This document shows positions 7,522 through 49,846 of a stretch of DNA of 64,000 bases, in pieces (within the stretch, counting starts at the first letter, position 1; each line of letters opens with the position of its first letter). The DNA is from Gammaproteobacteria bacterium (GTDB lineage Bacteria; Pseudomonadota; Gammaproteobacteria; Pseudomonadales; Porticoccaceae). The translations under genes and the position numbers were made by a program. The DNA is taken from NCBI GenBank assembly GCA_016708925.1, contig JADJET010000003.1:82465-146464 (forward strand). Direction: 5' to 3'. The notes below the pieces were generated by a model. That model worked only from the letters and a program-made list of their open reading frames with translations, was not told the DNA's origin and searched no databases.

Positions 7522-10212
7522 TCACACCGTCAATGGGTCGGCCTTGTCGGGCGCGATGCCCAGTTTGGCCATCGCCGCGTTCACCACGCCGGCGTCGATG
7601 GCGCCGCTGCGCTGCAAACCGTGCAGGGCCGCGAGCGCAATATGGTTGCGGCCCACTTCGAAGAAATCGCGCAACCGTTCGCGGGTATCGCTGCGCCCGA
7701 AACCGTCGGTGCCCAGCACCTGGTAGTCGCCGGGAACAAATCCGCGCAGCTGTTCGCCGAGCGCCTTGACGTAATCGGTCGCCAGCACCACCGGGCCTTT
7801 GTGTCCTTTCAGCTGTTGCGTCAGATAAGGCACGTGCGGCTTTTTGTCGCTGTGGAGACGATTCCAGCGCAGCGCGGCCTGACCGTCGCGGGCCAGCTCG
7901 CCGACACTGGTGACGCTCCACACGTCCGCGCCGACGTCGAACTGCTCGCGCAAAATTCGCGCTGCGGCGCGCGCTTCGTTGAGCATCGCGCCCGCGCCCA
8001 GCAGCTGCACCCGATGCTTGGCGCGCGGCCCCGCTTCCAGCAAATAAATCCCGCGCACGATGCCGTCGGCGGCACCATCCGGCATGGCCGGGTGGGCGTA
8101 GTTCTCGTTCAGGGTGGTGATGTAGTAGAAGCAGTTTTCGCGGTCGGCAAACATGCGTTTGAGACCGTCCTGAACAATCACCGTGAGCTCGTAACCATAG
8201 GCCGGATCGTAGGCGCGACAATTGGGAATCACCCCGGCGAGCAGCTGGCTGTGGCCGTCCTGATGCTGCAAGCCCTCGCCGTTGAGGGTGGTGCGGCCCG
8301 AAGTGGCGCCGATCAGAAAACCGCGCGCCTGGGCATCGCCGGCGGCCCAGGCCAGATCGCCGATGCGCTGGAACCCGAACATCGAGTAGAAAATGTAAAA
8401 CGGGATCATCGGCAGATCGTAGCTGCTGTACGCGGTCGCCAAAGCGATCCAGGCCGCCATCGAACCCGCTTCGGTGATGCCCTCCTCCAGAATCTGGCCT
8501 TTCTTATCTTCCTTGTAGTAGAGAATCTGACCGGCGTCGTGGGGCACATAGCGCTGCCCGGCCGAGGAATAAATGCCGAGCTGACGGAACATGCCCTCCA
8601 TGCCGAAGGTACGTGCTTCGTCGGGCACGATGGGCACGATACGGGTGCCAATGGCCTTGTCCCGCACCAGTTGCTGAAGCATGCGCACGAACGCCATGGT
8701 GGTGGATATCTCGCGCTCGCCGGTACTTTCCAGCAACCGGTTGAACGTTTCCAGCGCGGGAATTTCCAGCGGCTGGAATTCACCGTGACGGGCCGGCAGG
8801 TAGCCACCCAGTTCCTCGCGGCGCCGGCGCATGTACGCCAGTTCGGGACTGTCTTCCGGCGGCCGGTAGTAGGGCGTGTCTTCGATGTGTTCATCCGGAA
8901 TCGGCAGGCCGAAGCGGTCGCGAAACTTCTTCAGATCGTCGAGCTGGATTTTCTTGACCGAGTGAGTGTCGTTGGACGCCTCGCCGGAGCTGCCCAGGCC
9001 ATAGCCTTTGACGGTCATGGCCAGAATGACGGTGGGCTTACCGCGCGTTTCGACGGCCTCGGCGTAGGCGGCATACACCTTGTAGGGATCGTGGCCGCCG
9101 CGATTGAGATACATGATGTCGTCGTCGCTGAGATCCGCGACCAGCGCGGCCAGCTCCGGGTATTTGCCGAAAAAATGCTCGCGCGTGTAGGCGCCGCCGT
9201 TGAACTTGTAGTTCTGCAATTCACCGTCGCAGACTTCATCCATGCGTTTTTGCAGCAGTCCGGCGCTGTCGCGCTCCAGCAGCGGATCCCAGAGCCGACC
9301 CCAGACCACCTTGAGCACATGCCAGCCGGCGCCGCGGAACACACCTTCCAGCTCCTGAATGATCTTGCTGTTGCCACGCACCAGGCCGTCGAGGCGCTGG
9401 AGGTTGCAGTTGACCACGAACGTCAGGTTTTCGAGCTGCTCGCGCCCGGCGAGGGAAATCGCGCCCAGGGTTTCCGGCTCGTCGCATTCGCCATCGCCGA
9501 GGAATGCCCATACCCGGCGATCGCCGCGCGGCACCAGTTCGCGCGCCGACAGGTAGCGCATGATGTGGGCTTGGTAGATCGCCTGAATCGGGCCGAGGCC
9601 CATGGATACCGTGGGAAACTGCCAGTACTCCGGCATCAGCCAGGGATGCGGATAGGACGACAGACCCTTGCCGTCGACCTCGCGCCGGAAATGATCGAGC
9701 TGCTCTTCGGTTATGCGGCCTTCGAGAAACGAGCGCGCATAGATACCGGGCGAACTGTGGCCCTGATAGTAGATGAGATCCTCAAGCTGCCCCTCGCGAC
9801 GCGCACGAAAGAAATAATTGAAGCCGACGTCATAGAGCGTGGCGGCCGACGAAAACGTCGCGATGTGGCCACCCAGACCTTCGTATTTCTTGTTGGCGCG
9901 CATCACCATCGCCAGTGCATTCCAGCGGATCAGCGAGCGGATGCGGCGCTCCATGAACAGATCGCCAGGCATGCGTTTTTCGCGGCTGACCGGAATCGTG
10001 TTGCAAAACGGCGTGGTGACGCCACCCGACAGGGGAATGCCGTTGCGCGCCGCGCGATCAATCAGCTGGCGCAGCAGGAACGCCGCCCGCTCCGGCCCCT
10101 GAAAACGCAGCACGGCGTCGAGGGAGTCGAGCCAGTCGCCGGTTTCCGCAGGATCGGTATCCTCCGGGAGCATCGACACGTCCGGGACATCGGGTTGTTG
10201 CGGTTCATTCAT
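7522..10212 (-). CDS. aceE: pyruvate dehydrogenase E1 component, homodimeric type
   Basis: About 896 aa. N-terminal block DPAETGDWLDSLDAVLRFQGPERAAFLL and a long ThDP-enzyme body. ATG 10210-10212 preceded by AGGAAA; an alternative TTG lies at 10233. Immediately upstream of aceF. Confidence 0.93.
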   Translation of the reverse strand: MNEPQQPDVPDVSMLPEDTDPAETGDWLDSLDAVLRFQGPERAAFLLRQLIDRAARNGIPLSGGVTTPFCNTIPVSREKRMPGDLFMERRIRSLIRWNALAMVMRANKKYEGLGGHIATFSSAATLYDVGFNYFFRARREGQLEDLIYYQGHSSPGIYARSFLEGRITEEQLDHFRREVDGKGLSSYPHPWLMPEYWQFPTVSMGLGPIQAIYQAHIMRYLSARELVPRGDRRVWAFLGDGECDEPETLGAISLAGREQLENLTFVVNCNLQRLDGLVRGNSKIIQELEGVFRGAGWHVLKVVWGRLWDPLLERDSAGLLQKRMDEVCDGELQNYKFNGGAYTREHFFGKYPELAALVADLSDDDIMYLNRGGHDPYKVYAAYAEAVETRGKPTVILAMTVKGYGLGSSGEASNDTHSVKKIQLDDLKKFRDRFGLPIPDEHIEDTPYYRPPEDSPELAYMRRRREELGGYLPARHGEFQPLEIPALETFNRLLESTGEREISTTMAFVRMLQQLVRDKAIGTRIVPIVPDEARTFGMEGMFRQLGIYSSAGQRYVPHDAGQILYYKEDKKGQILEEGITEAGSMAAWIALATAYSSYDLPMIPFYIFYSMFGFQRIGDLAWAAGDAQARGFLIGATSGRTTLNGEGLQHQDGHSQLLAGVIPNCRAYDPAYGYELTVIVQDGLKRMFADRENCFYYITTLNENYAHPAMPDGAADGIVRGIYLLEAGPRAKHRVQLLGAGAMLNEARAAARILREQFDVGADVWSVTSVGELARDGQAALRWNRLHSDKKPHVPYLTQQLKGHKGPVVLATDYVKALGEQLRGFVPGDYQVLGTDGFGRSDTRERLRDFFEVGRNHIALAALHGLQRSGAIDAGVVNAAMAKLGIAPDKADPLTV

Positions 10213-17644: not shown

Positions 17645-17847
17645 CGCGCCATCCTCCGTAGTGTTGTGTCGGTGAGTCGTGCTTTATCCGTGAAGTTATA
17701 CAGCGTCCGCAAAATGCGAGCGCCCGGATTGTAGCACTTCATTTCCGACCCGCATCCGGCCGCACTGCTCCTGGCGGCGCGGCTCCTGGCAACGATTGTG
17801 CCCGACGCCGCCCCGGGTACAATCGTTGCCATCAAAGAGGAGTTGCC

Positions 17848-18546
17848 ATGAACCAGCCCATGACCCCGCTGCACCCCCATATCAGCGATTTCGAACAGGT
17901 TGTCCGCGCGCGCCGCTCGGTACGCGGATTTCTGCCGGACCCGGTGCCAGCGGACATCCTGCGCCATGTCTTCGAGTTGGCCCAACAGGCACCCTCCAAC
18001 TGCAATGTGCAGCCCTGGCAGGTGGTGGTCGCGTCCGGCGAATCCTGCCGCACCATCAGCCGCAAGCTGGTCGCGGCCGCGACCTCCGGCCGGCCGGTGA
18101 CCAGCGACTACCAGCGCGTCGAGGAATTTCCGGGCGTCATGCGCCGGCGTCAGATCGATACCGCGGTGTGTCTCTACGGACACATGGGCATCGCCCGCGA
18201 CGACCGCGACGGGCGGCGGATGGCGATGCTGCGCAACTACGAGTTCTTCGACGCCCCCCATATCGCCTTCATCGGCATGGACCGGATGTTTCACGAGACG
18301 GTGGCGCTCGACGTCGGCATGTACGCCCAGACCCTGATGCTGGCCATGACGGCCTACGGCATCGGCTCGTGCGCCCAGGCGGCCGTGAGCCGTTTTCCGG
18401 AAGTCGCGCGGGAACATTTCGGGCTGCCGGACAATATCGGCATTCTGATGGGGCTGTCGTTCGGCTACGAGGACACCGCGGTGCCGGCCAACCGCACCCG
18501 GGTGCCGCGCGCGGCGCTTGCGGAGCAGGTGCGCTTCGTGGAGTAA
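17848..18546 (+). CDS. nitroreductase family protein
   Basis: 232 aa. RRSVRGFLPDPVP...APSNCNVQPW signature of NAD(P)H-flavin nitroreductases. Confidence 0.85.
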   Translation: MNQPMTPLHPHISDFEQVVRARRSVRGFLPDPVPADILRHVFELAQQAPSNCNVQPWQVVVASGESCRTISRKLVAAATSGRPVTSDYQRVEEFPGVMRRRQIDTAVCLYGHMGIARDDRDGRRMAMLRNYEFFDAPHIAFIGMDRMFHETVALDVGMYAQTLMLAMTAYGIGSCAQAAVSRFPEVAREHFGLPDNIGILMGLSFGYEDTAVPANRTRVPRAALAEQVRFVE

Positions 18547-18569
18547 GCGCGGATCACCCTGCGCCGGGG

Positions 18570-19646
18570 TCAGTCCCCGGCGATCTGGCGCTCGCGAAAG
18601 TCCAACATGCGCTGCAAGGGCACCATGGCGCGGCGACCCAGTTCCGCGTCGACAAGAATTTCGTTGTCGCCGCGTTCCAGCGAATCGGCCAGATTGCGCA
18701 GGTGGTTCATCGCCATCCACGGGCAGTGGCCGCAACTGCGGCAGGTGGCGCCGTGGCCCGCCGTGGGCGCGATGATCAACTCCTTGGCGGGCGCGGCCTG
18801 CTGCATCTTGTAGAAAATGCCCTGGTCGGTGGCGACGATGCAACGCCGGTTGGGCAGGTTTCTGGCCGCCGCGATCAACTGCGAGGTGGAACCCACCGCG
18901 TCGGCGATGGCGATCACCGCCGCGGGCGACTCGGGATGCACCAGGATGGCGGCATCCGGATACACCTGCTTCAGATCCAGCAGACCACGCAGCTTGAATT
19001 CCTCGTGCACGACACAACTGCCGTCCCAGAGCAGCATGTCGGCCCCCGTCTGCTGTTGGACGTAGTGACCCAGGTGCTTGTCCGGCGCCCACAGAATCTT
19101 GTGTCCCTCGCCGTCGAGGTAATCGACCACATCGAGGGCGATGCTGGAGGTCACCACCCAGTCGGCACGCGCTTTCACCGCTGCCGAGGTATTGGCGTAG
19201 ACCACCACGGTGCGGTCGGGATGCTGATCGCAAAAAGCTGCGAACGCTTCCGCCGGACAGCCGATATCCAGGGAACAGGTCGCCTCCAGGGTCGGCATCA
19301 GCACGGTTTTTTCGGGGGTCAGAATCTTGGCGGTTTCCCCCATGAAACGTACCCCTGCCACCACCAGGGTCGCGGCCGGATGCCGCTTGCCGAAACGCGC
19401 CATTTCGAGGGAATCGGAAACGATGCCGCCAGTCTCCTCGGCGAGCGCCTGGATCGCCGGGTCGGTGTAGTAATGGGCGACGATGACCGCGTTCTTGGCC
19501 ACCAGCAGCTGCTTGATGCGGGCGATATCGGCGGCGCGCGCGGCCGGCGACTCGTGCTCCGGCGCCTGCATCCGGTCGAGATGCTGGATCACGATTTCCC
19601 GAAACCGGGCGCCGTCAGCGATCGCCAGACGTGAAGAATCAGCCAT
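18570..19646 (-). CDS. nadA: quinolinate synthase
   Basis: 358 aa from MADSSRL (ATG 19644-19646). Blocks [26 protein letters not shown] and CxxCxxM. The track ORF is extended upstream to 19799. Confidence 0.9.
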
Positions 19647-35010: not shown

Positions 35011-36764
35011 TTGCGCCTGGAACCGACGCCCACGCTCCACAGCCTCGCCTTTCGCGCCGCCGATTTCGCCACCCTGGCCGAAGCCCTGGACTACGCCGCC
35101 CTGGGCGCGACCGGGGCCAATTTCTATTCCGGCCAAGGCACGCTTCAGACACGGCTTTCATACCGTTCACTGCGCGCCGATGCCGTGGCGCTGGCCCGCA
35201 AGCTCCTCGCCCTGGGCCTGTCCCAAGGCGACCGCGTGGCGCTGGTTGCCGAAACCGATCCGCATTTCCTGCGTTTTTCTATGCCTGTCAGTACGCCGGA
35301 CTGGTTCCCGTCCCGCTGCCCGCCTCGGTCAAGCTCGGCGCGCATACGTCCTATGTCGCCCAGTTGCAACGCCTACTCGCGGGCAGCCACGCGAGCATCG
35401 CCGTGGCCTCCGAGGGCTATCTGCCGTTTCTGGAAGAAGCCAGCGCCGGTCTCGGCCTGCGCATGGTCGCGGATCCGGAGCGTTTTTATCGACTCCCGGC
35501 CGCTGAGCAGCAAGCGCTGCCCGCGCAGGATCCGGACAGCATTGCCTATATCCAGTACACCTCCGGCAGCACCCGCTTTCCACGGGGGGTAGTGATCCGG
35601 CAACACACGGCGATGGCCAATCTGGCTGGCATCATTCAGCACGGCGTCAAACTGATACCGGGGGACCGCTGCTTCTCGTGGCTGCCGTTCTATCACGACA
35701 TGGGGCTGGTGGGTTTCGTGCTGGTGCCCGTCGCCGCGCAGATCTCCGTCGACTACCTGGATACGCGCGACTTCGCCATGCGGCCACGGCAGTGGCTCAA
35801 TCTGATGACGCAAACCCGGGCGACCGTGTCCTTTGGGCCGCCCTTCGGCTACGACCTGTGCGCACGCCGGCTCGGCCCCGGCGAAGCGGAAAAGTACGAC
35901 TTGCGCCACTGGCGCGTGGCGGGCGTCGGCGCCGAGATGATCCGTCCCGAAACCCTGGATTATTTTGCGAAAACGTTGGCGCCGGCGGGATTCGACGCGC
36001 GCGCATTTCTGGCCTGCTACGGCATGGCCGAGTGCACACTCGGGATCAGCTTTTCACCGCTCGACTCGGGCCACAACACCGCGCTGGTGGACACCGACGA
36101 ACTCTACGAAAACAACCGCGTGGTGCTGCTCGACCCGGACAGCGCGACTGACGGCAGGGGACGGCGCTTCGTCGGCTGCGGGATTCCGCTGCCCGGCTAC
36201 GAAGTCGAGATCCGTAACGAGGATGGTGACGTACTGGGCGACCTCGAAAGCGGTGTCATCCATCTGCGCGGGCCCAGCGTCATGTCGGGCTACTTCGAAA
36301 TGCCCGAAGAAACCCGCGCCGTTCTGGACGAATGCGGCTGGTTGAACACCGGCGATATCGGTTATCTGGTCAACGGCGCCCTGACCATTACCGGCCGTCA
36401 GAAGGACCTCATCATCATTCGCGGCCGCAACATCTGGCCGCAGGATATCGAGCAACTGGCCGAAACCCAGCCTGAAGTCCGGCTCGATGGTGCGGTAGCG
36501 TTTGCCGCACCCGGAGCCGATGGCGACGAATGCGTGTTGATGGTGGAGTGTCGGGAAACCAAACCCGAGCGCCGCGCCGACCTCATCGCCCGACTCACGC
36601 GCCTGCTCCGGCAGGAACTAGCGCTTGAATGTCATATCGAGCTGGTGCCCAGAAGTTATCTGCCACGCACCTCGTCCGGCAAGTTGTCGCGCGCGCGGGC
36701 GCGCCTGATGTTCATCAACGAGTTGGCGATCGCGCCGGCTCTGGCCACGGCGGCATCGGCCTGA
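35011..36764 (+). pseudogene. fatty acyl-AMP ligase (FAAL-type AMP-dependent synthetase), -1 frameshift as assembled
   Basis: ORF 35011-35592 is homologous only up to ...VALVAETDPHFLRF. The sequence FYACQYAGLVPVPLPASVKLGAHTSYVAQLQRLLAGSH continues in the frame of ORF 35364-36764 (YIQYTSGSTRFPRGV, WLPFYHDMGL, SSGKLSR). The switch is at the T5 run 35274-35278. TTG start with GGAGG RBS. Confidence 0.8.
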
Positions 36765-37707
36765 GCGAACCCGCGGCGCCGCTCATTGCCATCACCGGCG
36801 CGACCGGCTTCATCGGCCGCAACCTCTGTTCCCGCCTGCGGGTGTCGGGGTTTCGGGTGCGCGCACTGGTGCGCTCCCCCGGCCAGGTGCCGTGGCTGGC
36901 GCGTGCCGGCATCGATATCCTTCCGGGTGATCTCGCCGCGCCGCCTGCGCTGCGGCAGTTGCTCGCCGGTAGTGCGGCCGTGATCCACTGCGCGGGCACT
37001 GTGCGCGGCCGCACCCCGGCCGATTTCGCGTCCGCCAATGTGCTGGGCTGCCAGCATCTGGTACAGGCCATCAAGGATTCGGACACTCCACCACGACTGT
37101 TGGCACTGTCGTCGCTGGCGGCGCGGGAACCACAGCTGTCGCACTACGCTGCCAGCAAATTTGCCGGCGAGCAGGTGGTGTCGGCGAGCGGCGATGCGGT
37201 CGCCTGGACCATCCTGCGGCCACCGGCCGTGTACCCGGCGACCGCGAACTGCTGCCGCTGTTTCGGCTGATGGCGCGCGGTATCGCGCCGCTGCCCGGCG
37301 GTCTCACGGACCGCGTCTCGATGCTCTACATCGACGATCTGGCAAGCGCCGTCATGTGCTGGCTGGCTACGGACTCGCCGCCACGACGGATTTTTACCCT
37401 CAGCGATCCCGCGGACGCGGGCTACAGTTGGGCGGATATCGTGCGCATCGCGGGCGTCGTGTGCGGGCGCCAGGTGCGACCCCTCCGGGTACCGTCCGTG
37501 GTGCTCGACGGGATCGCCGGAGTAAACTGGGCTGCCGCCGCGCTGTTGCGTTACGCGCCCATGCTGACGCCCAGCAAAGTACGGGAATTGCGCCATGCCG
37601 ACTGGACCTGCGACTGGCGCGAGCTGGGCGCCGCGCTTGACTGGCAACCGCGGGTCGATCTGGCCACCGGAATGCGCAACACTCTGCATGATGACGCTGG
37701 GCGTTAA
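36761..37707 (+). pseudogene. NAD-dependent epimerase/dehydratase-family SDR (possible reductase), -1 frameshift as assembled; start codon uncertain
   Basis: Rossmann motif ITGATGFIGRNL and catalytic YAASK. The first part (to ...ILRPPAVY) is in the frame of ORF 36629-37270, and the remainder (GDRELLPLFRLMARGIAPLPGG...) is in the frame of ORF 37270-37707. The switch is at 37234-37240 (tacccggcg). No ATG/GTG/TTG lies near the motif; the only candidate is a CTG overlapping the FAAL stop (CTGA). Confidence 0.65.
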
Positions 37708-38382: not shown

Positions 38383-39333
38383 ATGCCCGAGTACTACCTG
38401 ATCCCCAAGCGCCTGATCAAACGCTGGCCGTCCCTGCGCCGGGCCGCGTGGGCGATGGAGGGCTACTTTTTCAAGGCGTTGATCGGCGGCGCTCGCCTGC
38501 TGCCCCCGGAACGCGCCGGGAAACTGCTGTCCTGGCTGTTCGGATTGGTCGGGCCCCACACCGCCAAGGCCGCCAAGGCCGACGCCAACCTGCGCTTTGT
38601 GCTGCCGCGACAAAGCGCGCGCGAACGCCGCGCCATGGTGAAGCAAATCTTTCGCAATCTCGGCCTGGCCACCGCCGAGCTGCTGTCCGCCAACCGCATC
38701 CTCGCCGAACGCGAGCGGCGCTTTGAATTTATCGCCGACCCCGTCACCACCGCGCTGCTGGCCGCGCACCAACCCATTCTCTTTGTCACCGCCCATATCG
38801 GCGCCTGGAATCTGGGTAACGCCATGGTTTCCCACTACGGATTTGAGGCCAGTTATCTTTACGCGAAGGAACCCAATCCCTACCTGCACGAACTGTTTTA
38901 CGGCATGCGCAAGATCCCGGGCATTCATCTTTACCCCAATACCGGAGGTCTGCTGCGCCTGCATCGGGAGCTGGCTGCCGGACGCAGCGTGGGACTGGTG
39001 GTGGACACCCGCCTGGATGAAGGCGAACTCATCCCCCTGTTCGGCGTTCCCGCGCCCACCAACACCCTCGCCGCCCGCCTCGCCCTGCGCACCCGGGTGC
39101 CGCTGATTCCGGTGCGGACCGAACGCTTGCCGAATCATCGCTATCGCATCACCGCCGGCCCGCCGATCAAGGTGCCTGAAGATATCCAGGAGGAGCTGCC
39201 GCGCGCGATCGCCATGACCGCCGAGATCAGCCGGCGCTTCGAAGCGTGGATCCGCACCGATCCCGCGCAGTGGGTCTGCCTCAAACGGCGCTGGCCCAAG
39301 GACGCAGCACCCGCGCTGGAGGCAAACCCCTAA
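38383..39333 (+). CDS. LpxL/HtrB/PatA-family lysophospholipid (lipid A-type) acyltransferase
   Basis: About 316 aa (an alternative TTG lies at 38356). Family layout: N-terminal anchor, catalytic HIGAWNL (HX4-type) block, VGLVVDTRLDEGELIPLFG and C-terminal PAQWVCLKRRW, as in Lip_A_acyltrans proteins. Confidence 0.75.
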   Translation: MPEYYLIPKRLIKRWPSLRRAAWAMEGYFFKALIGGARLLPPERAGKLLSWLFGLVGPHTAKAAKADANLRFVLPRQSARERRAMVKQIFRNLGLATAELLSANRILAERERRFEFIADPVTTALLAAHQPILFVTAHIGAWNLGNAMVSHYGFEASYLYAKEPNPYLHELFYGMRKIPGIHLYPNTGGLLRLHRELAAGRSVGLVVDTRLDEGELIPLFGVPAPTNTLAARLALRTRVPLIPVRTERLPNHRYRITAGPPIKVPEDIQEELPRAIAMTAEISRRFEAWIRTDPAQWVCLKRRWPKDAAPALEANP

Positions 39334-39435
39334 ACGGCCAGGGCCGAGCGCGAAACCGCCACCGTGCCAATGCTAAACTCGCACCCTCGACCACGCGCGT
39401 CCTGTGCATCACGCCATTCCGACCGGTTCCATTCC

Positions 39436-40379
39436 ATGCATGTGATCAACAAGCACGTCACCAAACGGCTGGTTCGGCTCGCCAGTCACGTCCTGCCGGA
39501 AGAGCGCGGACTCGCGCTCGAACGCTGGCGTCGCGGCCGCGAGGAGTACTGGAAATACCAACGTTGCGATCACGTCTTCGCCTCCTATGGCAAGAGCGGA
39601 CGCACTGGGTGCGCGCCATGCTGTCGCGCTATTTCCAGCTCGCCTGCAACATTCCGGAAAATATCCTGTTCGGCTTCGACAACTACCACAAGATAAATCC
39701 GGCAGTACCGAAAATATTTTTTACCCATGACAACTATTTGCGCACTTACACCGGCAATCTCGATTCCAAGAAAGATTTCTACGCCAAAAAAACCGTGCTG
39801 CTGGCGCGCCGCCCCCAGGATGTCGCGGTGTCGCAGTTCTTCCAGTGGAAGCATCGCATGCGCCCGTACAAAAAGGCACTGAACCTGTACCCGAGCCACG
39901 GCGCCGATATTTCCCTCTACGACTTCGTGATGGACGAACACCAGGGCCTGCCTCACATCATCGAATTCATGAATCTGTGGGAACGTGAATTGCCCAAAAT
40001 CCGCGTGTCCCTGTTGTTGCGCTACGAAGACCTGCGCGCCACGCCGCACCCGGAATTGAGCCGGCTGGTGGCGTTTCTGGGCATGCAGCCCGATGCCGCC
40101 GCCATCGCCGACGCGGTCGAGTTCGCCACGGTGGAAAATCTGCGCAAAAAGGAAGAGACCAATTATTTCTGGCGCAGCGGCAGCCGCCTCAAGGCCGCCG
40201 ATCCGAGTAACCCGGACTCCTACAAGGTACGTCGCGCCAAGGTCGGCGGCTACCGGGATTATTTCGACGATCGGCAACTCGCGGAAATCGACGGGCTGGT
40301 CGCGGCACGGCTCGCACCGAGCTTTGGTTACAGCGAAACGCCCGCGGTCACCGCGCCGCGAGATGCCGTTCGTGACTGA
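39436..40379 (+). pseudogene. sulfotransferase paralog 1, -1 frameshift as assembled
   Basis: The N-terminus MHVINKHV...YGKSGRT (frame of ORF 39364-39696) continues as WVRAMLSRYFQ... in the frame of ORF 39246-40379. The switch is at 39605-39606 (cgcac-tgggtg, versus ACC TGG in the paralogs). PAPS motifs GKSGRTW and RRPQDVAVS. Confidence 0.75.
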
Positions 40380-41304
40380 TTACCTTCGCATCGCGCGGCA
40401 CGCCGGCGTCGCTGTTTGTCCTTTGGCATCGCGCGAGCACCGCAAGGCATCCGAACGCTGGCTGCGCGGCTGGCTGGAATACCGCCGCCTGCAACCGGCG
40501 GACTGGGTGTTGATGTCCTGGGGCAAGAGCGGCCGGACCTGGCTGCGGGTGATGCTGTCGCGTTTTTACCAGGTACGCTACGGTCTACCGGCCTCCGAAT
40601 TGCTCGATTTCGACAATTTCCACCGGCGCAATCCGGCGGCGCCGCGCGTGTTCTTCACCCACAACAATTACCTGCGCGACTACACCGGCAACTGGCAATC
40701 GAAAGCACATTTCGCCGGCAAAAAAATCGTTTTGCAGGTACGCGACCCGCGCGATGTCGCGGTGTCGCAATTCTTTCAGTGGCAGTTCCGCATCCAGCCG
40801 CGCAAGAAATTTCTCAACGACTATCCGCCCCACGGCGCCGATATCGGCGTTTTCGATTTCGTCATGAATCCGCAAGTGGGCTTGCCGCGCATCATCGACT
40901 ACTTCAACGACTGGGCCGCATCGCGGGCCGAAGTCGCCGACCTGCTGCTGGTGCGCTACGAAGACATGCGCAGCGATCCGGGGCGGGAATTGCGACGCAT
41001 TCTGAGCTTCACCGGCACACCGGGGACCGAAGACGAGATCGCCGAAGCGGTCAATTTTGCCGCCTACGACAATATGAAAAAGCTGGAAGCGGACGGTTTC
41101 TTCCGCAACAGCGGCGCGCGCGTGAAAGCCGGCGATACCAATAATCCCGAGTCCTTCAAGGTGCGACGCGCCAAGGTCGGGGGTTACCGGGATTATTTCG
41201 ACGACGATCAATGTCGCACGCTCGACGCATTGATGACGAAGCTGGACCCCGTGTTCGGCTACGACGCCGCGCCTGCGCCAGCAACCGGCGTGGCGGCGGG
41301 GTAG
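40363..41304 (+). CDS. sulfotransferase paralog 2
   Basis: 313 aa from MPFVTDYLRIARH (ATG 40363), overlapping paralog 1 by 17 nt. 5'-PSB loop GKSGRTWLRVMLS, 3'-PB block VRDPRDVAVSQFF, and C-terminal NPESFKVRRAKVGGYRDYFDD. Confidence 0.8.
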   Translation: MPFVTDYLRIARHAGVAVCPLASREHRKASERWLRGWLEYRRLQPADWVLMSWGKSGRTWLRVMLSRFYQVRYGLPASELLDFDNFHRRNPAAPRVFFTHNNYLRDYTGNWQSKAHFAGKKIVLQVRDPRDVAVSQFFQWQFRIQPRKKFLNDYPPHGADIGVFDFVMNPQVGLPRIIDYFNDWAASRAEVADLLLVRYEDMRSDPGRELRRILSFTGTPGTEDEIAEAVNFAAYDNMKKLEADGFFRNSGARVKAGDTNNPESFKVRRAKVGGYRDYFDDDQCRTLDALMTKLDPVFGYDAAPAPATGVAAG

Positions 41305-42763: not shown

Positions 42764-43741
42764 TCAGGCAGCCTCCAACCGGATTTTGTTCAGGACATCC
42801 AACGCATCGTGGCGCAAGTGATTGCGTGCCATCTCGGCGCGCAACAAGTCTTCGGTTACCGAACCGTTATCGAGACATTCCCGCACCAGCGTGAAAAACA
42901 GCCGCTCCTGGGCCGGGTCCGGGTGGCGGGCGTAGCGGCCGAGCAGCGCGTATTCGCCGAGTAGACGCGCGCGCACCCGGTTGAGCCCGGCGAGCAGGGG
43001 CTTGTCTTTCAGTTTGTCGGCGGGCGTGAAGTCGACCGGGAGCCCGGTTTTCCAGGGCTGGGTGCGGCGTTTGGTGTTGTGGAGCATTTTCGTCTGCGGC
43101 GTGAGGCGATCGAAATCGTTCCACTCGGGCTCCAGCCAGCCGATGTTCTCGGGTCGCTCGTGCGCCAGCACCATCCAGTCCTTGTAGTCGCGCGTGAAAC
43201 TGAACAGTTCACCGAACTCCCGCTCGCAATCCCAGTGCCGCAACCGCGCGCAGTCCAGCAGCATCACGCTGGTGGCCACCTGAAACCCTTTTTCGTCGCG
43301 CCCGGAGCGCCGCCGGCCCATCACCGCCGCGCCCTGCATGTCGCGGGTCAGCAGTTCGTGGATATCGCCGACCGCGAACACATCGGGATCGATCACCACG
43401 GCGCGGCCGCGATACCCGGCGAGTTGCGGCGCCAGGAAGCGCAGCGGCGTGAACGACTGCAGATCGTCCATGCGCCAGGTGCGGGTGGTGCCGCCACGCA
43501 GGAACTCCTGCCCCTCGCGTACGGCCAGGAAGGGATAATCCTTCACATGAATGAATTCCACCGTGAAAGTGTCGGCATGGCGGGAGTTGCGCCTCAGCGC
43601 ATGAGCCGCCACCAGGGCGCCGAGCCACTGCCGGTCATTGGTATGGATGAAGACCCGCAGTTCCTCTGGGGTCCGGGTGTCGCTCGGGGAATTTTCTGCC
43701 ACTGTCATCTGTGCTGTCTCGATTCGCGGGGATTCCGCCAT
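42764..43741 (-). CDS. DXD-motif nucleotide-sugar transferase-like protein (GT8-like), paralog A
   Basis: 325 aa. VFIHTNDRQWLGALVAAHAL, AVVIDPDVFAVGDI (DXD-like) and TSVMLLDCARLRHW resemble GT-A/GT8 blocks. Clear paralog of 46747-47640. Assignment is tentative. Confidence 0.4.
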   Translation of the reverse strand: MAESPRIETAQMTVAENSPSDTRTPEELRVFIHTNDRQWLGALVAAHALRRNSRHADTFTVEFIHVKDYPFLAVREGQEFLRGGTTRTWRMDDLQSFTPLRFLAPQLAGYRGRAVVIDPDVFAVGDIHELLTRDMQGAAVMGRRRSGRDEKGFQVATSVMLLDCARLRHWDCEREFGELFSFTRDYKDWMVLAHERPENIGWLEPEWNDFDRLTPQTKMLHNTKRRTQPWKTGLPVDFTPADKLKDKPLLAGLNRVRARLLGEYALLGRYARHPDPAQERLFFTLVRECLDNGSVTEDLLRAEMARNHLRHDALDVLNKIRLEAA

Positions 43742-43762: not shown

Positions 43763-44725
43763 TTACTTGAACAGGCCGCGTCGATGAAGACGCCAGAAGA
43801 AAGCCCAACCGTAAACCAGCGGGTGGCGGCGCACCTTGTCCGGAATCAATACCGGCTGCCCCGAGTGACGCTCGAGCTTCCAGGCCAGGTAATCCAGTCC
43901 GCCGGCAAAGGTGAACAGCGCCTTGGTGAGCCGCAGCAGGGAGCGCACCTTGCCGTGCACGCCGCGCAAGCGCCATGCGATCCGCGCACGCAACCGGGCA
44001 CCCGGCGGGATGGTTGCGGCATAGCATAAGCCCGTCGCATCCTCGACCAGGCGAAATCCATGGGGCAACCGCGCGGCAACCCGTTGGGTGAGGTCGCGGT
44101 AAAAAGGCTCGCCCCAGGCAGCCAGTTCCCGGGTCCGTCCGCCCTGCTCCGCGCGCAGCTCGGTGCCGTAGCTCAGTGCCAGGCTTTGCCGCCAGAGATC
44201 GCTGACCGGGCCTGCGGGCGGCACCAGCGGCAGCGCGCGACTCAACAGAGTGGTTGCGGCCAGTTCCTGGTCCGCCCTGAGCAGATCGCTGTAGTCGGGC
44301 GCACCGGACCGAGCATCGTGTTCCCGCGCATGGACCAGCGCCACCGGCTGGCAGAACCGCCCCCAGAAATAACTCTCGAAAGTGCGCGGCGACAGGCCGC
44401 GCTGAAAATCGGCGCGCGACACCACCGCGTATTTGCATCGCAAGGTGCGACCCTGCTCAGCCACTTCGGCGTAATAGACATTGGGCGGCAACAGCCAGTT
44501 GGCCAGGGTGCGTCCGGCACTCTGACCCGAGTGCCGGTAACCCGACACAATTACATAGAGGTCCACCAGCCCGTCGTGGAAATCGCCGCTGCGCAGGCAG
44601 GAACCGTACAGAATGATGGCGACCACGGCATCGCCGTGGCGTTCGCGCAGCACGGCGAGCAGCGGCGCCAGCGCCTGCTGACCAGCCGGCTCCACCTGCG
44701 TCACGTCCACCACCGGCGACGTCAC
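43763..44725 (-). CDS. Tam41/Mmp37-like nucleotidyltransferase (candidate phosphatidate cytidylyltransferase-type enzyme)
   Basis: 320 aa. ILYGSCLRSGD...DLYVIV (pol-beta NTase-like), then NVYYAEV...CKYAVVS...YFWGRFCQPV. This mirrors the Tam41 GVYFN...KYGVV...YLAGRLQKPV block as I remember it. GTG start overlaps the upstream stop (GTGA). Confidence 0.45.
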   Translation of the reverse strand: MTSPVVDVTQVEPAGQQALAPLLAVLRERHGDAVVAIILYGSCLRSGDFHDGLVDLYVIVSGYRHSGQSAGRTLANWLLPPNVYYAEVAEQGRTLRCKYAVVSRADFQRGLSPRTFESYFWGRFCQPVALVHAREHDARSGAPDYSDLLRADQELAATTLLSRALPLVPPAGPVSDLWRQSLALSYGTELRAEQGGRTRELAAWGEPFYRDLTQRVAARLPHGFRLVEDATGLCYAATIPPGARLRARIAWRLRGVHGKVRSLLRLTKALFTFAGGLDYLAWKLERHSGQPVLIPDKVRRHPLVYGWAFFWRLHRRGLFK

Positions 44726-45696
44726 AGGCGCAGAAACCGCAGCGGCCCGGCCGCCGTGATGACCACGGGACCCGCGGCGCGGGCGACCGCGACGATTTCG
44801 CCATCGAGATTGAAACTGCCGTCCATATCCAGAGCGATGCGCGCTGCCCGCTGGCTATGGTAGCCGGCGTCGGGGACCACGGCACGCCCGGGGCGTCCGC
44901 GCAGGATGCCGGGAAAACTTCTGAGCAAGCGGCGCGCACGACCCTCGATCAGACTCCACTTGAGCGGCCCGGCGCCCTTGCCCCAGAACGGTCGCAAGCC
45001 GAGGAACAGTCGGTCGAGAGTGCTCACCGCCAGAATCAACGCGTCGCATTCCAGCGCCTCGCCAACGTCCGAGCGCACCGCCACCGGTAGTGGCTGCCAG
45101 AACTCGGGGTCGCGGCGCACCAGTCCCCAGAGCGTGCGCACCATGCCCAGACCCAGGCTGAAGTCATCGCGCAGCCCCCGCGCGTGCAGTTCGCGATGAG
45201 CGTAGGCGGTGCCCTGCATGATGACGCCGGTGCCGAAAAACATGCCGTAGCGCGGCGGCTGCGCGCCCGGATCGACCCGCAAGACATGGCGCTCGACGAT
45301 GAGGCCTTCGGTCGCGCAGCCGGTCTCTGCCCAGGCCTGCAAGCGGCGCAGCGCCGTTTGCAGCGAGCCGTAAATCCCCACATCGCCCGCCGTCATGTTG
45401 GCGGTGCCGCCCGGCAGCAGCGCCAGCAGCGGCAAATCGGCTAATGAAAAATGCGCGAACAACTGGGCAAAAACCGCCGCCGCCGTGCCATCGCCGCCGT
45501 TGATCACCAGCAATCGGAGCGGCGCTCCGGCCAGCATCCCGAGTACCCCCGGGATGTCTTCCGCGGCGTCGGTGATGAAGTGGCGAAACCGCGGGTCCCC
45601 ATCCAGTGCCGCCGCCACCACGCCCAGGCGGTCCCGGTTGTGGCCGCTGTTGCGGTTGCTGATGACGGCGATCACCGGCTGCGGATTTCCGGTCAC
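44722..45696 (-). CDS. diacylglycerol kinase catalytic-domain lipid kinase (YegS/LCB5/ceramide-kinase-like)
   Basis: 324 aa. IAVISNRNSG, VINGGDGT, LPGGTANM and C-terminal NLDGE, the DAGK_cat signature. GTG start overlaps the upstream stop. Confidence 0.65.
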   Translation of the reverse strand: MTGNPQPVIAVISNRNSGHNRDRLGVVAAALDGDPRFRHFITDAAEDIPGVLGMLAGAPLRLLVINGGDGTAAAVFAQLFAHFSLADLPLLALLPGGTANMTAGDVGIYGSLQTALRRLQAWAETGCATEGLIVERHVLRVDPGAQPPRYGMFFGTGVIMQGTAYAHRELHARGLRDDFSLGLGMVRTLWGLVRRDPEFWQPLPVAVRSDVGEALECDALILAVSTLDRLFLGLRPFWGKGAGPLKWSLIEGRARRLLRSFPGILRGRPGRAVVPDAGYHSQRAARIALDMDGSFNLDGEIVAVARAAGPVVITAAGPLRFLRL

Positions 45697-46685
45697 TGGA
45701 CGGCAGTATTGCCGGAGGTGTTGCCGGGCATGTTGCCATAGCCGAATACGGGGTCCAGCCCGCCAGCGATCCGCGCATCGATGCGCGCGACTTCTTCATC
45801 GGTGCAGTAGTCACGATAGCCGCCGACCTTGGCGCGACGCACTTTGTAACTGTCCGGATTGTCGCGGTCCCGCGCCGCCAGCCGCCCACCGGTCAGGCGC
45901 AACGGCCCCAGATGCAGCCCACCCTGACTCTCGCGCGCCTTCATCTTGTCGTAAGAGGCGTAGGCCACGGCGTCGCCGACCACCTGTTCGCCCGCCGCGA
46001 CACCCATGAAATCCAGCAGCACCCGCAACTGGTTTTCGGGATCACGGCGCAGATCCTCGTAGCGCAGCACATGCAGGCGCTTGATGTGGGGAATCTCCGC
46101 CGCCCAGGTATTCATGAAGCTCAGTGCGTCGCCGAGACTGCCGCCATAATCGCTCATCAGGTAATCGAATACGCCGATGTCGGAACCGGCCGGTGGATAC
46201 TTGTTGATCTTTTTCTTGTCCGGCTTCATGCGGAATTTCCACTGGAAATAATTCGACACCGAGACATCCCGCGGGTCGCGCACCATCAGCACCACGGGCT
46301 TGTCGTAGAACGGCGCCTTCGAATCCGGCACTCCGGTGAAATCCTTGATGTAGTTGTCGTGGGTAAAAAATATTTTCGGAATCTTCGCATTCAGGTTATG
46401 AAAATTATCGAAACCGAGCACCAGGTTTTCCGGCAGGCGGTACATCAAGCGAAACACCTGGGACAGCATCACCCGCAGCCAGGTGCGCCCGCTCTTGCCG
46501 AACGACACCACCGCGATATCGCAAGCGCGCAGCGTCGCGTACTGTTCCGCGCCCCGCAGTTTGCGCTCCTCCACCAGGCGCGCGCCTTCGTCCAGGCGGC
46601 GCAGACGCCAGTGCAACAGACGTCGCGAACCCTTTTTGGCGAGGGTGCGGACCAGTTGCCTTGCGCTTTGAATCACAACACTCAT
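45693..46685 (-). CDS. sulfotransferase paralog 3
   Basis: 330 aa. FGKSGRTWLRVMLS, VRDPRDVSVSNYF and NPDSYKVRRAKVGGYRDYCTD, the same three blocks as paralogs 1 and 2. Confidence 0.8.
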   Translation of the reverse strand: MSVVIQSARQLVRTLAKKGSRRLLHWRLRRLDEGARLVEERKLRGAEQYATLRACDIAVVSFGKSGRTWLRVMLSQVFRLMYRLPENLVLGFDNFHNLNAKIPKIFFTHDNYIKDFTGVPDSKAPFYDKPVVLMVRDPRDVSVSNYFQWKFRMKPDKKKINKYPPAGSDIGVFDYLMSDYGGSLGDALSFMNTWAAEIPHIKRLHVLRYEDLRRDPENQLRVLLDFMGVAAGEQVVGDAVAYASYDKMKARESQGGLHLGPLRLTGGRLAARDRDNPDSYKVRRAKVGGYRDYCTDEEVARIDARIAGGLDPVFGYGNMPGNTSGNTAVQ

Positions 46686-46746: not shown

Positions 46747-47640
46747 TCAGGTGGCTGTCCGTGCCAGCACTTCAAAAGCATCCGGGCGCAAGTGGTGGCG
46801 GGCGATTTCGTCGCGCAGGCGGGCGGCATCGACGACATTGCGATCCATGCATTCGCGCAGCAGCCCGAAAAAAAACCGCTCCTGCGCGGGGTCCGGGTGC
46901 TGCCGGTAGCTGCCGGCGAAGCGATAGTCGCCAAACAGCGCCCGGCGGGCGCGCCGCAACCAGTGCCGCGGTGGAAACAGGCGAAAGCTGTCGGCGGGGC
47001 GGAAATCGACCTTGAGCCCCGTCTTCCAGGGCTGCGTCCAGCGCTTGGTGTTGTGGAGCATCTTGGTCTCGGCCGTGAGGTGGTCAAAGTCGTTCCAGAC
47101 ATCTTCCAGCGGGCCGATGCTGGCGCGGTCCTCCAGGCGCAGGGAAATCCAGTCCATGTAATCGCGTGCGCCGCTGAACAGCGCGGCGAAATCGCGCTCC
47201 AGGTTCCAGTGCCGCAGTTTTTCGCAGTCGAGCAGCATCACGCTCGACGCAAAGGCGCCGCGCCTGCCCTTGTTGCCGGACTTGGGGCGACACAGGATCG
47301 CCTTGCCGCCCATGTCACGCGACAGCAGATCCCAGACATCGCCGACCGCGAACACATCCGGATCGATCACCAGCGCGCGACCGCGATAGTTCATCAGCTC
47401 CGGCGGCGCAAAGCGCAACGGCGTGAACGACTGGAGATCGTCGTTGACCCAGGGACGCCATTCGCCGGAGCGGCGATACAACTGCCCTTCCCGGCTCTGC
47501 AGGCTTGGAAAATCAGCGGCATTCATCGGCCGAATGTCGAATTTTTCGTTGTGACGGGAGTTGCGGCGCAGCGCATATTCCGCCACCACGGCACCCAGCG
47601 ACTGCCTGTGATTGCTCTGGATGAAAACGCAATGGTCCAC
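46747..47640 (-). CDS. DXD-motif nucleotide-sugar transferase-like protein (GT8-like), paralog B; first gene of the minus-strand operon
   Basis: 297 aa, GTG start 47638-47640. Collinear with paralog A (ALVIDPDVFAVGDV, SSVMLLDCEKLRHW, MLHNTKRWTQPWKTGL, HPDPAQERFFF). Confidence 0.4.
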   Translation of the reverse strand: MDHCVFIQSNHRQSLGAVVAEYALRRNSRHNEKFDIRPMNAADFPSLQSREGQLYRRSGEWRPWVNDDLQSFTPLRFAPPELMNYRGRALVIDPDVFAVGDVWDLLSRDMGGKAILCRPKSGNKGRRGAFASSVMLLDCEKLRHWNLERDFAALFSGARDYMDWISLRLEDRASIGPLEDVWNDFDHLTAETKMLHNTKRWTQPWKTGLKVDFRPADSFRLFPPRHWLRRARRALFGDYRFAGSYRQHPDPAQERFFFGLLRECMDRNVVDAARLRDEIARHHLRPDAFEVLARTAT

Positions 47641-48374: not shown

Positions 48375-49733
48375 TCAGAGCATCCCCAGGCCGATGAAGG
48401 TGGCCGCGCCGGCCAAATAACCGGCCAATGCCAGCGCGCTGATGCGCTTGAAATACCAGAAAAAATCGATGCGCTCCATGCCCATCGCCGCGACGCCCGC
48501 CGCGGAACCAATGATCAGGCAGCTGCCGCCGGTCCCCGCGCAGAAGGCCAGCAGCTCCCAGAATTTGCCGTCCTGGACAAAGTACTGCAGCCACTGTGCA
48601 TCGCCGCCGGCGCCGGCCAGGGCTTCCGGGCTGATTAGCGGATACATCTTCATGGCGCCCGCTACCAGGGGCACGTTGTCGACGACGGAGGACAGCAGGC
48701 CGACAGCGATGTTGATCGCGTAGATGTTGCCCAGGCTCTCGCGCAGATAGGTGGCCACCTGATTCAGGTGTCCCGCGGTCGCCAGGCTGGACACCGCAAG
48801 CAGAATGCCCAGAAAGAACAGCACGCTGGTGGTATCGACGCGCCGCAATACGCCCACCACCGAGAGCGGGTGCTTGTCCTCCTGATTCTTGTCGCGGTGC
48901 AGGATCTCGGTGGTCACCCAGAGTACCGACAGTCCGAACAGCATGCCCATGTAAGGGGGCAAATGGGTCACTGTTTTGAACGCCGGCACGAACACCAGTG
49001 CGCCGATGCCCATGAAGAACACCAGCCTGCGCTCGAAGGGTGTGGTCGGATCGCCGATTTCCTCGAGTGACGGGCTGCGTACCGGGCGTTCAATCTCGCC
49101 CTTGAGCCGCACACTCACCAGCAGCAGAGGCACCAATATGCAGATCAGACTGGGCAGGAACAGCTGCTCAATGATGCTTACCGTAGTGATCTGACCGCCG
49201 ATCCACAGCATGGTGGTGGTGACGTCCCCGATCGGCGACCAGGCACCGCCCGCATTGGCAGCGATCACCACCATGCCCGCGTAGAACCAGCGCTCTTGCT
49301 GATCACGAATCAGCTTGCGCAACAGGGAAATCATGACGATGGTGGTAGTGAGATTGTCGAGCGCCGCCGATATGAAGAAGGTAATGAAACAGAGCACCCA
49401 CAACAGGCGGACTCTGTTGTGGGTGACGATGCGATCAGTGATGACCTTGAAACCCTCATGGGCATCGACCAGCTCCACGATGGTCATGGCGCCGAGCAGG
49501 AAGAACAGAATCTCGGCGATCTCGCCGAGATGGTGACGCAGTTCAGCGGCGATTCCGTGGAGTTCGTCGGGTGCGCTGGTGAAAATCTGGTCGGCGCCAA
49601 ACACCAGGATGGTCCAGCACAGCACCGCGGTGAGAATCGCCGAGGCGGCCTTGTCGATCTTGATGGGGTGTTCCAGCGCGATACACAGATATCCAACCAC
49701 GAACACTGCGGCCATCAAGAGGTAGGCTGACAT
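48375..49733 (-). CDS. nhaD: Na+/H+ antiporter NhaD
   Basis: 452 aa from MSAYLLMAAVFVVGY (ATG 49731-49733). NhaD/ArsB-superfamily blocks AALDNLTTTIVM, ANAGGAWSPIGDVTTTMLW and SSVVDNVPLV. Confidence 0.85.
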   Translation of the reverse strand: MSAYLLMAAVFVVGYLCIALEHPIKIDKAASAILTAVLCWTILVFGADQIFTSAPDELHGIAAELRHHLGEIAEILFFLLGAMTIVELVDAHEGFKVITDRIVTHNRVRLLWVLCFITFFISAALDNLTTTIVMISLLRKLIRDQQERWFYAGMVVIAANAGGAWSPIGDVTTTMLWIGGQITTVSIIEQLFLPSLICILVPLLLVSVRLKGEIERPVRSPSLEEIGDPTTPFERRLVFFMGIGALVFVPAFKTVTHLPPYMGMLFGLSVLWVTTEILHRDKNQEDKHPLSVVGVLRRVDTTSVLFFLGILLAVSSLATAGHLNQVATYLRESLGNIYAINIAVGLLSSVVDNVPLVAGAMKMYPLISPEALAGAGGDAQWLQYFVQDGKFWELLAFCAGTGGSCLIIGSAAGVAAMGMERIDFFWYFKRISALALAGYLAGAATFIGLGML

Positions 49734-49846
49734 GGACGACAGTTCTCCAGGCAGGATTTCGCTGCTTCCCGCCCGCTGGCGGCGGAAGCCGGAGCGGAAT
49801 CGGGGTAAAGAATAACGGATCTTGCTCCGCATTCCCGGACGCGCTA

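Follow-up and report, generated by a model that had tools for sequence, protein, structure and literature searches.

A further CpgB-CpgC-type gene pair, for a predicted ceramide kinase and a Tam41-fold nucleotidyltransferase, in a gammaproteobacterial genome

The published map of the Caulobacter crescentus phosphosphingolipid genes comprises CC_1165 (acyl-acyl carrier protein (ACP) synthetase), CC_1164 (cerR), CC_1162 (spt), CC_1161 (cpgC) and CC_1160 (cpgB), and further CC_1159 (cpgA), CC_1158 (phosphoesterase), CC_1154 (bCerS) and CC_1152 (cpgD) (PMC11324152). Deletion of cpgC leaves ceramide phosphate in place and abolishes ceramide phosphoglycerate (CPG) (PMC9393093, PMC11324152). Zik et al. 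(2022) reported 'no conserved domains' in CpgC; Olea-Ozuna et al. (2024) noted an InterPro CDP-diacylglycerol-synthase domain in CC_1161 and proposed that CpgC makes an NDP-activated ceramide (PMC11324152); papers from 2025 and May 2026 still call the CpgC step 'unidentified'. Here, we report a further CpgB-CpgC module in a distinctive genomic setting, with GT8-like genes and three sulfotransferase genes nearby and no cpgA found. It consists of overlapping genes for a kinase (P0001) and a Tam41-like protein (P0002) in a 64,000-nucleotide stretch of a Porticoccaceae genome (GCA_016708925.1, contig JADJET010000003.1, positions 82,465 to 146,464, forward strand; G+C content about 63%), hereafter the window. 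A preliminary description of this DNA had proposed a kinase making a lipid phosphate, followed by a Tam41-type CTP transferase. Since an NDP-activated ceramide has been in print since 2024, the core of that idea is sound but already published.

The features that make up the pair are as follows.

44722..45696, minus strand: predicted CpgB-type lipid (ceramide) kinase P0001, 324 aa, with a DAGK_cat domain and GGDG motif
43763..44725, minus strand: predicted CpgC-type Tam41-fold nucleotidyltransferase P0002, 320 aa, with a nucleotidyltransferase (NTase) domain, a winged-helix domain and a C-terminal tail rich in cationic and aromatic residues
44722..44725, minus strand: GTGA stop/start overlap of the two genes (kinase TGA at 44724-44722, next GTG start at 44725-44723)

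Both are real, intact genes. Their third-position G+C contents (0.82 and 0.78) are typical for coding sequence of this genome, and each protein can be aligned from end to end with hundreds of homologues. Positions, strand and motifs were given correctly in the preliminary description, and the GTGA overlap, which would couple translation of the two enzymes, can be read directly in the sequence.

The kinase assignment is firm at the domain level: the translation contains NGGDGT (residues 65-70), LPGGTANM and NLDGE, and P0001 matches Pfam DAGK_cat (PF00781) above the cut-off (E 3.6e-10, 39.9 bits), as had been anticipated from the motifs. Bacterial ceramide kinases have been described as having a DAGK_cat/LCB5 domain and a GGDG ATP motif without the CxxxCxxC motif of eukaryotic CERK (PMC10331486), and no CxxxCxxC occurs in the translation of P0001. 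The protein is 35% identical over 255 residues (E 1e-25) to P0392, the kinase at the cpgB position in Phenylobacterium. Its best solved relative is YegS, at E 0.0087 over 55 residues. No NCBIfam model scores above its cut-off for P0001 or P0002, the lipid-kinase models falling far below. By these comparisons, P0001 appears closer to the cpgB-position kinases than to lipid kinases of the YegS/DgkB type.

P0002 carries two blocks, YGS...D-L-Y and NVYY...KYAVVS...FWGRFCQPV, the second of which had been likened to the core of the mitochondrial CDP-diacylglycerol synthase Tam41. At the level of the single protein this relation falls short: the match to Pfam Tam41_Mmp37 (PF09139) has E 0.036 and 13.8 bits against a cut-off of 24 bits, and a six-frame search of the protein's own genome gave no PF09139 match. 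At the level of the family it is visible. More than 1600 homologues were retrieved in the first search, many with a precomputed PF09139 match, and the Tam41-like family comprises 1658 clusters at 50% identity. One member, P0409, clears the Pfam cut-off with 34.3 bits and matches the structures 6IG2 (3.7e-6) and 7ECD (0.015). Among solved structures, a profile of 25 gammaproteobacterial homologues (A1) matches Schizosaccharomyces pombe Tam41 (6IG2/6IG4) best (E 3e-4), the alignment spanning the NVxY, KYxV, GRFxxPV and LSY...R blocks. The alphaproteobacterial profile (A2) alone matched no solved structure and the combined profile (A3) reached Tam41 at E 0.04, so that the sequence link comes from the gammaproteobacterial profile and from single members.

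The predicted structure points the same way. In a Foldseek search with the AlphaFold model of P0002 (pLDDT 88, pTM 0.86), five Tam41 chains came first (E 4e-10 to 7e-9, query-normalised TM-score 0.48-0.51), and the next-best matches were aminoglycoside nucleotidyltransferases at 1e-5 with a TM-score of 0.3. The model has the two-domain architecture of Tam41, an NTase domain followed by a winged-helix domain, which in Tam41 jointly build the CTP pocket. Residues G41-S42...D55-L-Y57 are invariant in the family, without a second acid at the DxD position; Tam41 itself keeps one of the three canonical NTase acids, and basic residues hold the CTP (PMC11646218). K98, R123, Y186 and R191 are likewise family-invariant and align with identical residues of S. 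pombe Tam41. Residues 241-320 are predicted to be helical and contain 18 lysines and arginines against 3 acidic residues, as well as 11 aromatic ones; by composition and prediction these last 80 residues resemble the basic, membrane-binding C-terminal tail of Tam41 (PMC7018664).

Judged by predicted fold and family-level sequence, P0002 appears to be a true relative of Tam41, although at only 17-18% identity to the solved Tam41/Mmp37 proteins of S. pombe and Firmicutes (7ECD). Because it scores below the Pfam cut-off while close members pass, we file it as a divergent Tam41-fold subfamily and not as Pfam-defined Tam41. The statement in the preliminary description that bacterial Tam41 homologues are essentially uncharacterised is out of date: the structure of a Firmicutes Tam41 has been solved (7ECD), CDP-diacylglycerol synthase activity is reported for that protein in a review (PMC11646218), and knockout phenotypes of CpgC are on record in Caulobacter (PMC9393093, PMC11324152).

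The pairing of the two genes is strongly conserved. A scan of one genome per species yielded at least 568 loci with a relative of P0002, and the best 80, all gammaproteobacterial by sequence, were examined. In 76 of them the gene directly upstream of the Tam41-like one encodes a P0001 homologue, and the other four end at a contig edge. The same kinase-then-Tam41-like order was found in all ten loci fetched from other classes, including those of Stakelama, Erythrobacter, Qipengyuania, Alteraurantiacibacter, Phenylobacterium, Methylopila, Commensalibacter and a relative of Dongia. Of 87 loci, 58 allow a 4-nucleotide [AG]TGA overlap, and in 23 more the gap does not exceed 30 nucleotides (81/87 together). 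The gamma- and alphaproteobacterial families are homologous over their full length (A1 against A2 in hhalign: 292 columns, probability 100, E 5e-79). The view of the pair as a tightly coupled kinase-nucleotidyltransferase module is therefore borne out across genomes.

One representative protein of 662 aa, P0518, has a DAGK_cat domain (19-127) fused to a Tam41-like domain (358-661). Such a fusion fits consecutive action of the two enzymes; it is a single metagenomic gene call and could also have arisen through an indel. A second apparent fusion, a long frame in locus L093, was rejected as a chance open frame in high-GC DNA, the kinase and NTase matches lying in different frames. Three loci (L060, L078, L080) resemble those of the Halieaceae type in gene content and identity levels, and yet come from metagenome-assembled genomes that bear the labels Enterobacteriaceae, Bacteroidia and Roseovarius. 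Gene transfer seems a less likely reason for this than contigs that were mis-binned.

Comparison with Caulobacter gives the pair its metabolic context. In Phenylobacterium (L089) and the Dongia relative (L092), an AMP-ligase gene, a gene for a CerR-like short-chain dehydrogenase/reductase (SDR) and that for a 405-aa class I/II aminotransferase (Spt) are followed convergently by the Tam41-like gene, the kinase gene and genes for a CDP-alcohol phosphatidyltransferase and a metallophosphoesterase. About 5 kb further in L089 are genes for a 380-aa GNAT-like protein (bCerS) and a MobA-like cytidylyltransferase (CpgD-like). This order mirrors the published map from CC_1165 to CC_1152. P0370, encoded between kinase and spt in Phenylobacterium, is 34% identical to P0002 (tblastn, E 2e-25). 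As with CpgB (CCNA_01218/CC_1160) and CpgC (CCNA_01219/CC_1161), the gene of a kinase with the diacylglycerol kinase (DAGK) fold stands immediately upstream of that of a Tam41-like protein of about 300 aa, the pair occurs only in ceramide-synthesising genomes, and its neighbours in Phenylobacterium are spt, cerR, the AMP-ligase gene, bCerS and cpgD. The locus studied here differs in its sequence identity of only about 31-35%, in the absence of a detected cpgA, in the separation of the pair from spt and bCerS, and in its neighbours, which include GT8-like genes, three sulfotransferase genes, and genes for a 2-oxoglutarate-dependent (2OG) oxygenase and a phosphopantetheinyl transferase (PPTase). 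With no cpgA found and this GT8/sulfotransferase setting, the final head group is probably not CPG2.

The same comparison bears on the substrate, for which the preliminary description had listed phosphatidate, ceramide-1-phosphate or a similar lipid. A sample of 401 Pseudomonadota genomes included 32 with a bCerS-like gene and 369 without; these are related genomes and not independent samples. Strong Tam41-like matches were found in 17 genomes from nine families, all 17 of which are bCerS-positive, and the protein was found in none of the 369 bCerS-negative genomes. The genome under study conforms to this pattern: the contig of the window also carries, some 50 kb ahead of it (C3:32-37 kb) and about 90 kb from the pair, spt, a CC_1158-like metallophosphoesterase gene, the gene of a CpgD-like cytidylyltransferase and a bCerS-like gene. 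In approximately 15 gammaproteobacterial loci bCerS and CpgD-like genes are the immediate neighbours of the pair.

Given this synteny with sphingolipid genes and the co-occurrence with bCerS, the kinase substrate is most likely ceramide, not diacylglycerol (DAG); of the lipid phosphates listed earlier, ceramide-1-phosphate is favoured and phosphatidate is not. An alternative is DAG salvage, in which the kinase would produce phosphatidate and the Tam41-like protein CDP-DAG, in parallel to CdsA. Eukaryotic and Firmicutes Tam41 enzymes do make CDP-DAG (PMC7018664, PMC11646218), CpgB phosphorylates DAG in vitro (PMC10331486), and some family members bear the UniRef label 'phosphatidate cytidylyltransferase'. 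Nevertheless, we regard salvage as very unlikely in view of the 17/17 against 0/369 distribution and the synteny with spt and cerR; moreover, phosphatidate levels are unchanged by cpgB deletion, and deletion of cpgC blocks a sphingolipid step (PMC10331486, PMC9393093). A canonical CdsA is already encoded in the genome (C18:165053-165835). CdsA has an unrelated integral-membrane fold and catalyses a reaction analogous to that predicted for P0002, in which CMP is moved from CTP onto a lipid phosphate. With a CdsA copy of its own in the genome, the Tam41-like protein is an addition and not a replacement; the route envisaged earlier as independent of CdsA would stand beside it, not in its place.

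Ceramide genes also occur without the pair. In a sample of 41 Caulobacteraceae genomes, six encode a Tam41-like protein. Two loci from this family (L103 of genome G410, L104 of G408) contain genes for the AMP-ligase, cerR, spt and bCerS; neither kinase, Tam41-like gene, cpgA nor cpgD was found within 20 kb around spt, and the Tam41-like family profile had no match anywhere in the two genomes. The phospho-head-group module therefore looks like an optional add-on to ceramide synthesis.

Taken together, we consider it rather probable that the two genes correspond as orthologues to Caulobacter cpgB and cpgC and that their products lead from ceramide-1-phosphate through CDP-ceramide to a phosphodiester-linked head group. 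In the first step, the soluble DAGK-fold kinase would convert ceramide and ATP to ceramide-1-phosphate, as shown for Caulobacter CpgB. In the second, the Tam41-fold protein, presumably bound to the membrane through the predicted C-terminal helices with their cationic and aromatic residues, would transfer CMP from CTP onto ceramide-1-phosphate, yielding CDP-ceramide and pyrophosphate, by analogy with the action of Tam41 on phosphatidate; the context is that of sphingolipids, not of cardiolipin or phosphatidylglycerol, and the predicted substrate differs correspondingly. In the third, the activated ceramide phosphate would be passed to a hydroxyl acceptor, by some transferase or by the same enzyme, so that a phosphodiester-linked head group begins; more speculatively, the neighbouring GT8-like glycosyltransferases and the sulfotransferases, using 3'-phosphoadenosine-5'-phosphosulfate (PAPS), may then extend and sulfate it. 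Of these three steps, only the first has biochemical precedent. The scheme resembles the route from choline to CDP-choline through LicA and LicC, where an alcohol is phosphorylated and then converted to a CDP derivative for later phosphodiester transfer, although here a membrane lipid is the substrate and the two enzymes have different folds.

Several observations, in addition to the sub-threshold Pfam score, weigh against this scheme. Caulobacter CpgB, whose ceramide kinase activity is known, has a comparable rate of DAG phosphorylation in vitro (PMC10331486). The link to the C. crescentus proteins runs through Phenylobacterium synteny and the published description. The nucleotide preference of P0002 cannot be read from its sequence; the literature searched contained neither an enzyme assay of any CpgC-type protein nor the term 'CDP-ceramide', and no candidate was identified for a transferase that would consume it. 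Searches for a cpgA homologue were negative both in this genome, of which the assembly is 89% complete, and in the 80 gammaproteobacterial loci up to 10 kb from the pair; in Caulobacter, cpgA is dispensable for the first head-group step (PMC9393093).

In an alternative reading, no free CDP-ceramide would be released. The Tam41-like protein might join glycerate or another alcohol to ceramide-1-phosphate, as suggested by Zik et al., or might use a nucleotide-activated head group in the manner of NTase-fold phosphotransferases. Genetics place just cpgB and cpgC before CPG, a separate transferase has not been found (PMC9393093, PMC11324152), and the gammaproteobacterial loci have no CDP-alcohol transferase gene close to the pair; the CpgD-like cytidylyltransferase of this genome could, in turn, supply a CDP-activated head group. 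On the other hand, esterification without activation is energetically unfavourable (PMC11324152), CPG persists after cpgD deletion, so that the first step does not depend on CDP-glycerate (PMC12275187), and the closest structures are those of CMP-transferring Tam41 enzymes. We hold such a route to be unlikely.

What sets the gammaproteobacterial pair apart is its surroundings. The minus-strand run consists of five head-to-tail open reading frames (ORFs), from 47640 down to 42764, and the relevant features of the window besides the pair itself are the following.

46747..47640, minus strand: second GT8-like paralogue, 297 aa, first gene of the operon; matches P0004 homologues at 55-60% identity, without a Pfam match
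45693..46685, minus strand: sulfotransferase 3 (Pfam Sulfotransfer_1, E 8.8e-20), with a second GTGA overlap, into the kinase gene
42764..43741, minus strand: GT8-fold glycosyltransferase-like protein P0004 (by predicted structure), 325 aa, just 3' of the pair, without a Pfam match
35011..37707, plus strand: acyl-ACP-synthetase-like AMP-ligase (Pfam AMP-binding) and CerR-like SDR (Pfam Epimerase/NAD_binding_4), each in two frames

The island around the pair encodes, along with the three sulfotransferases and the GT8-like proteins, the 2OG oxygenase and PPTase, an LpxL-like acyltransferase and a fatty-acid hydroxylase; Wzy_C-like and ELM1-like proteins are also among the neighbours. This composition, and the distance of about 90 kb from spt and bCerS, would suit a pair recruited to the phosphate of some other hydroxylated lipid made by the local AMP-ligase, SDR, hydroxylase and acyltransferase. 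We think this improbable: the AMP-ligase and SDR of the island are of ceramide-pathway types, their homologues adjoining spt in Phenylobacterium, Dongia-like and other alphaproteobacterial loci, while the co-occurrence with bCerS holds for the sampled gammaproteobacterial genomes also, and in the approximately 15 loci mentioned above the pair stands directly beside bCerS.

Two other uses of the pair were considered and rejected. A non-canonical PAPS route serving the three sulfotransferases, with the NTase as sulfate adenylyltransferase and the kinase as adenosine 5'-phosphosulfate (APS) kinase, was dropped on account of a canonical APS kinase in the genome and the Tam41 fold of the NTase. A role in modification of the lipopolysaccharide (LPS) core or lipid A, suggested by the LpxL-, Wzy_C- and ELM1-like neighbours, was set aside, as the pair accompanies spt and bCerS in alphaproteobacteria.

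Neighbours counted in the 80 gammaproteobacterial loci, up to 10 kb from the pair, are GT8-like paralogues (57 loci), sulfotransferases and ELM1-like proteins (52 each), and an exported protein with no assigned function (45), followed by the 2OG oxygenase (36), the PPTase (34), and GT2 (glycosyltransferase family 2) and Wzy_C-like proteins (27 each). The ten loci from other classes showed no sulfotransferase. In loci of the Porticoccaceae-like, Halieaceae and Thiogranum types the pair is not beside cpgA. The two GT8-like proteins of the window are paralogues with about 55% identity, and Halieaceae loci hold three or four copies. Assignment of P0004 to GT8 (glycosyltransferase family 8) comes from its AlphaFold2 model (pLDDT 78), which matches XXYLT1, LgtC, GlyE and glycogenin at E 6e-9 to 1e-5, and from the motif D118-P-D120, invariant in 22 homologues; a protein-atlas lead also points to GT8. 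Enzymes of this family use UDP-sugars as donors. They would therefore extend the head group, and use of a CDP-lipid as donor is not expected of them. The earlier suggestion, in the form that the flanking glycosyltransferase-like proteins could couple the CDP-lipid to a head group, is thus not supported.

In Halieaceae-type loci (L017:8008-9051, L065:8080-9015, L073 at about 8185-9018) the gene directly upstream of the kinase gene is that of the exported protein, which has about 310 residues and a signal peptide and belongs to no Pfam family. It is absent from the window, where a sulfotransferase gene occupies this position. A 313-aa ORF upstream of the Thiogranum kinase (L048), at first taken as a gene of unassigned function, proved to be an antisense reading of a CC_1158-type metallophosphoesterase gene. 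Matches to Pfam Mito_fiss_Elm1 (E 2e-57) lie near the pair in Halieaceae (L017:12908-14029 and 17667-18992), alongside GT2 and Wzy_C (O-antigen-ligase-like) genes, and this combination hints at a glycan built on, or ligated to, a lipid.

Two observations concern the window and assembly more generally. Just upstream of the minus-strand operon is a gene for a permease of the CitMHS family (ion transporter superfamily; 48375-49832). Several otherwise full-length genes are split between two frames or carry in-frame stops: the AMP-ligase (35011-36764), the CerR-like SDR (36629-37707) and the first sulfotransferase pair (39246-41304) in the window, and outside it the broken spt (C3:32687-33846) and two extra APS-kinase matches, each with a TGA (C20:10988-11311; C4:3338-3751). 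The pattern looks like assembly indel errors rather than decay.

For the final product, a sulfated glyco-phosphosphingolipid is a reasonable guess. We suggest tentatively, and with more doubt than confidence, that in marine bacteria of the Porticoccaceae, Halieaceae and Thiogranum types CpgB and CpgC supply CDP-ceramide to a CpgA-less pathway of GT8-like, GT2, ELM1-like and O-antigen-ligase-like proteins and PAPS sulfotransferases, leading to such a lipid, possibly an LPS-like sulfated glycan on a sphingolipid anchor. We know of no bacterial lipid class of this kind.

In the synthesis of bacterial phosphosphingolipid head groups, CpgC accounts for the one step that papers from 2025 and 2026 still call chemically unidentified. 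The Tam41 fold, the strict pairing with a kinase, the fusion protein and the nesting within ceramide-synthesising genomes turn this step into a concrete, testable hypothesis, the conversion of ceramide-1-phosphate and CTP to CDP-ceramide. If true, this would be, to our knowledge, the first CDP-activated sphingolipid intermediate described, and the Tam41 fold would have ceramide-1-phosphate as its second lipid substrate. The Tam41-like family is common in abundant marine gammaproteobacteria, and its link there to sulfotransferases and glycosyltransferases points to outer-membrane lipids that are so far undescribed.

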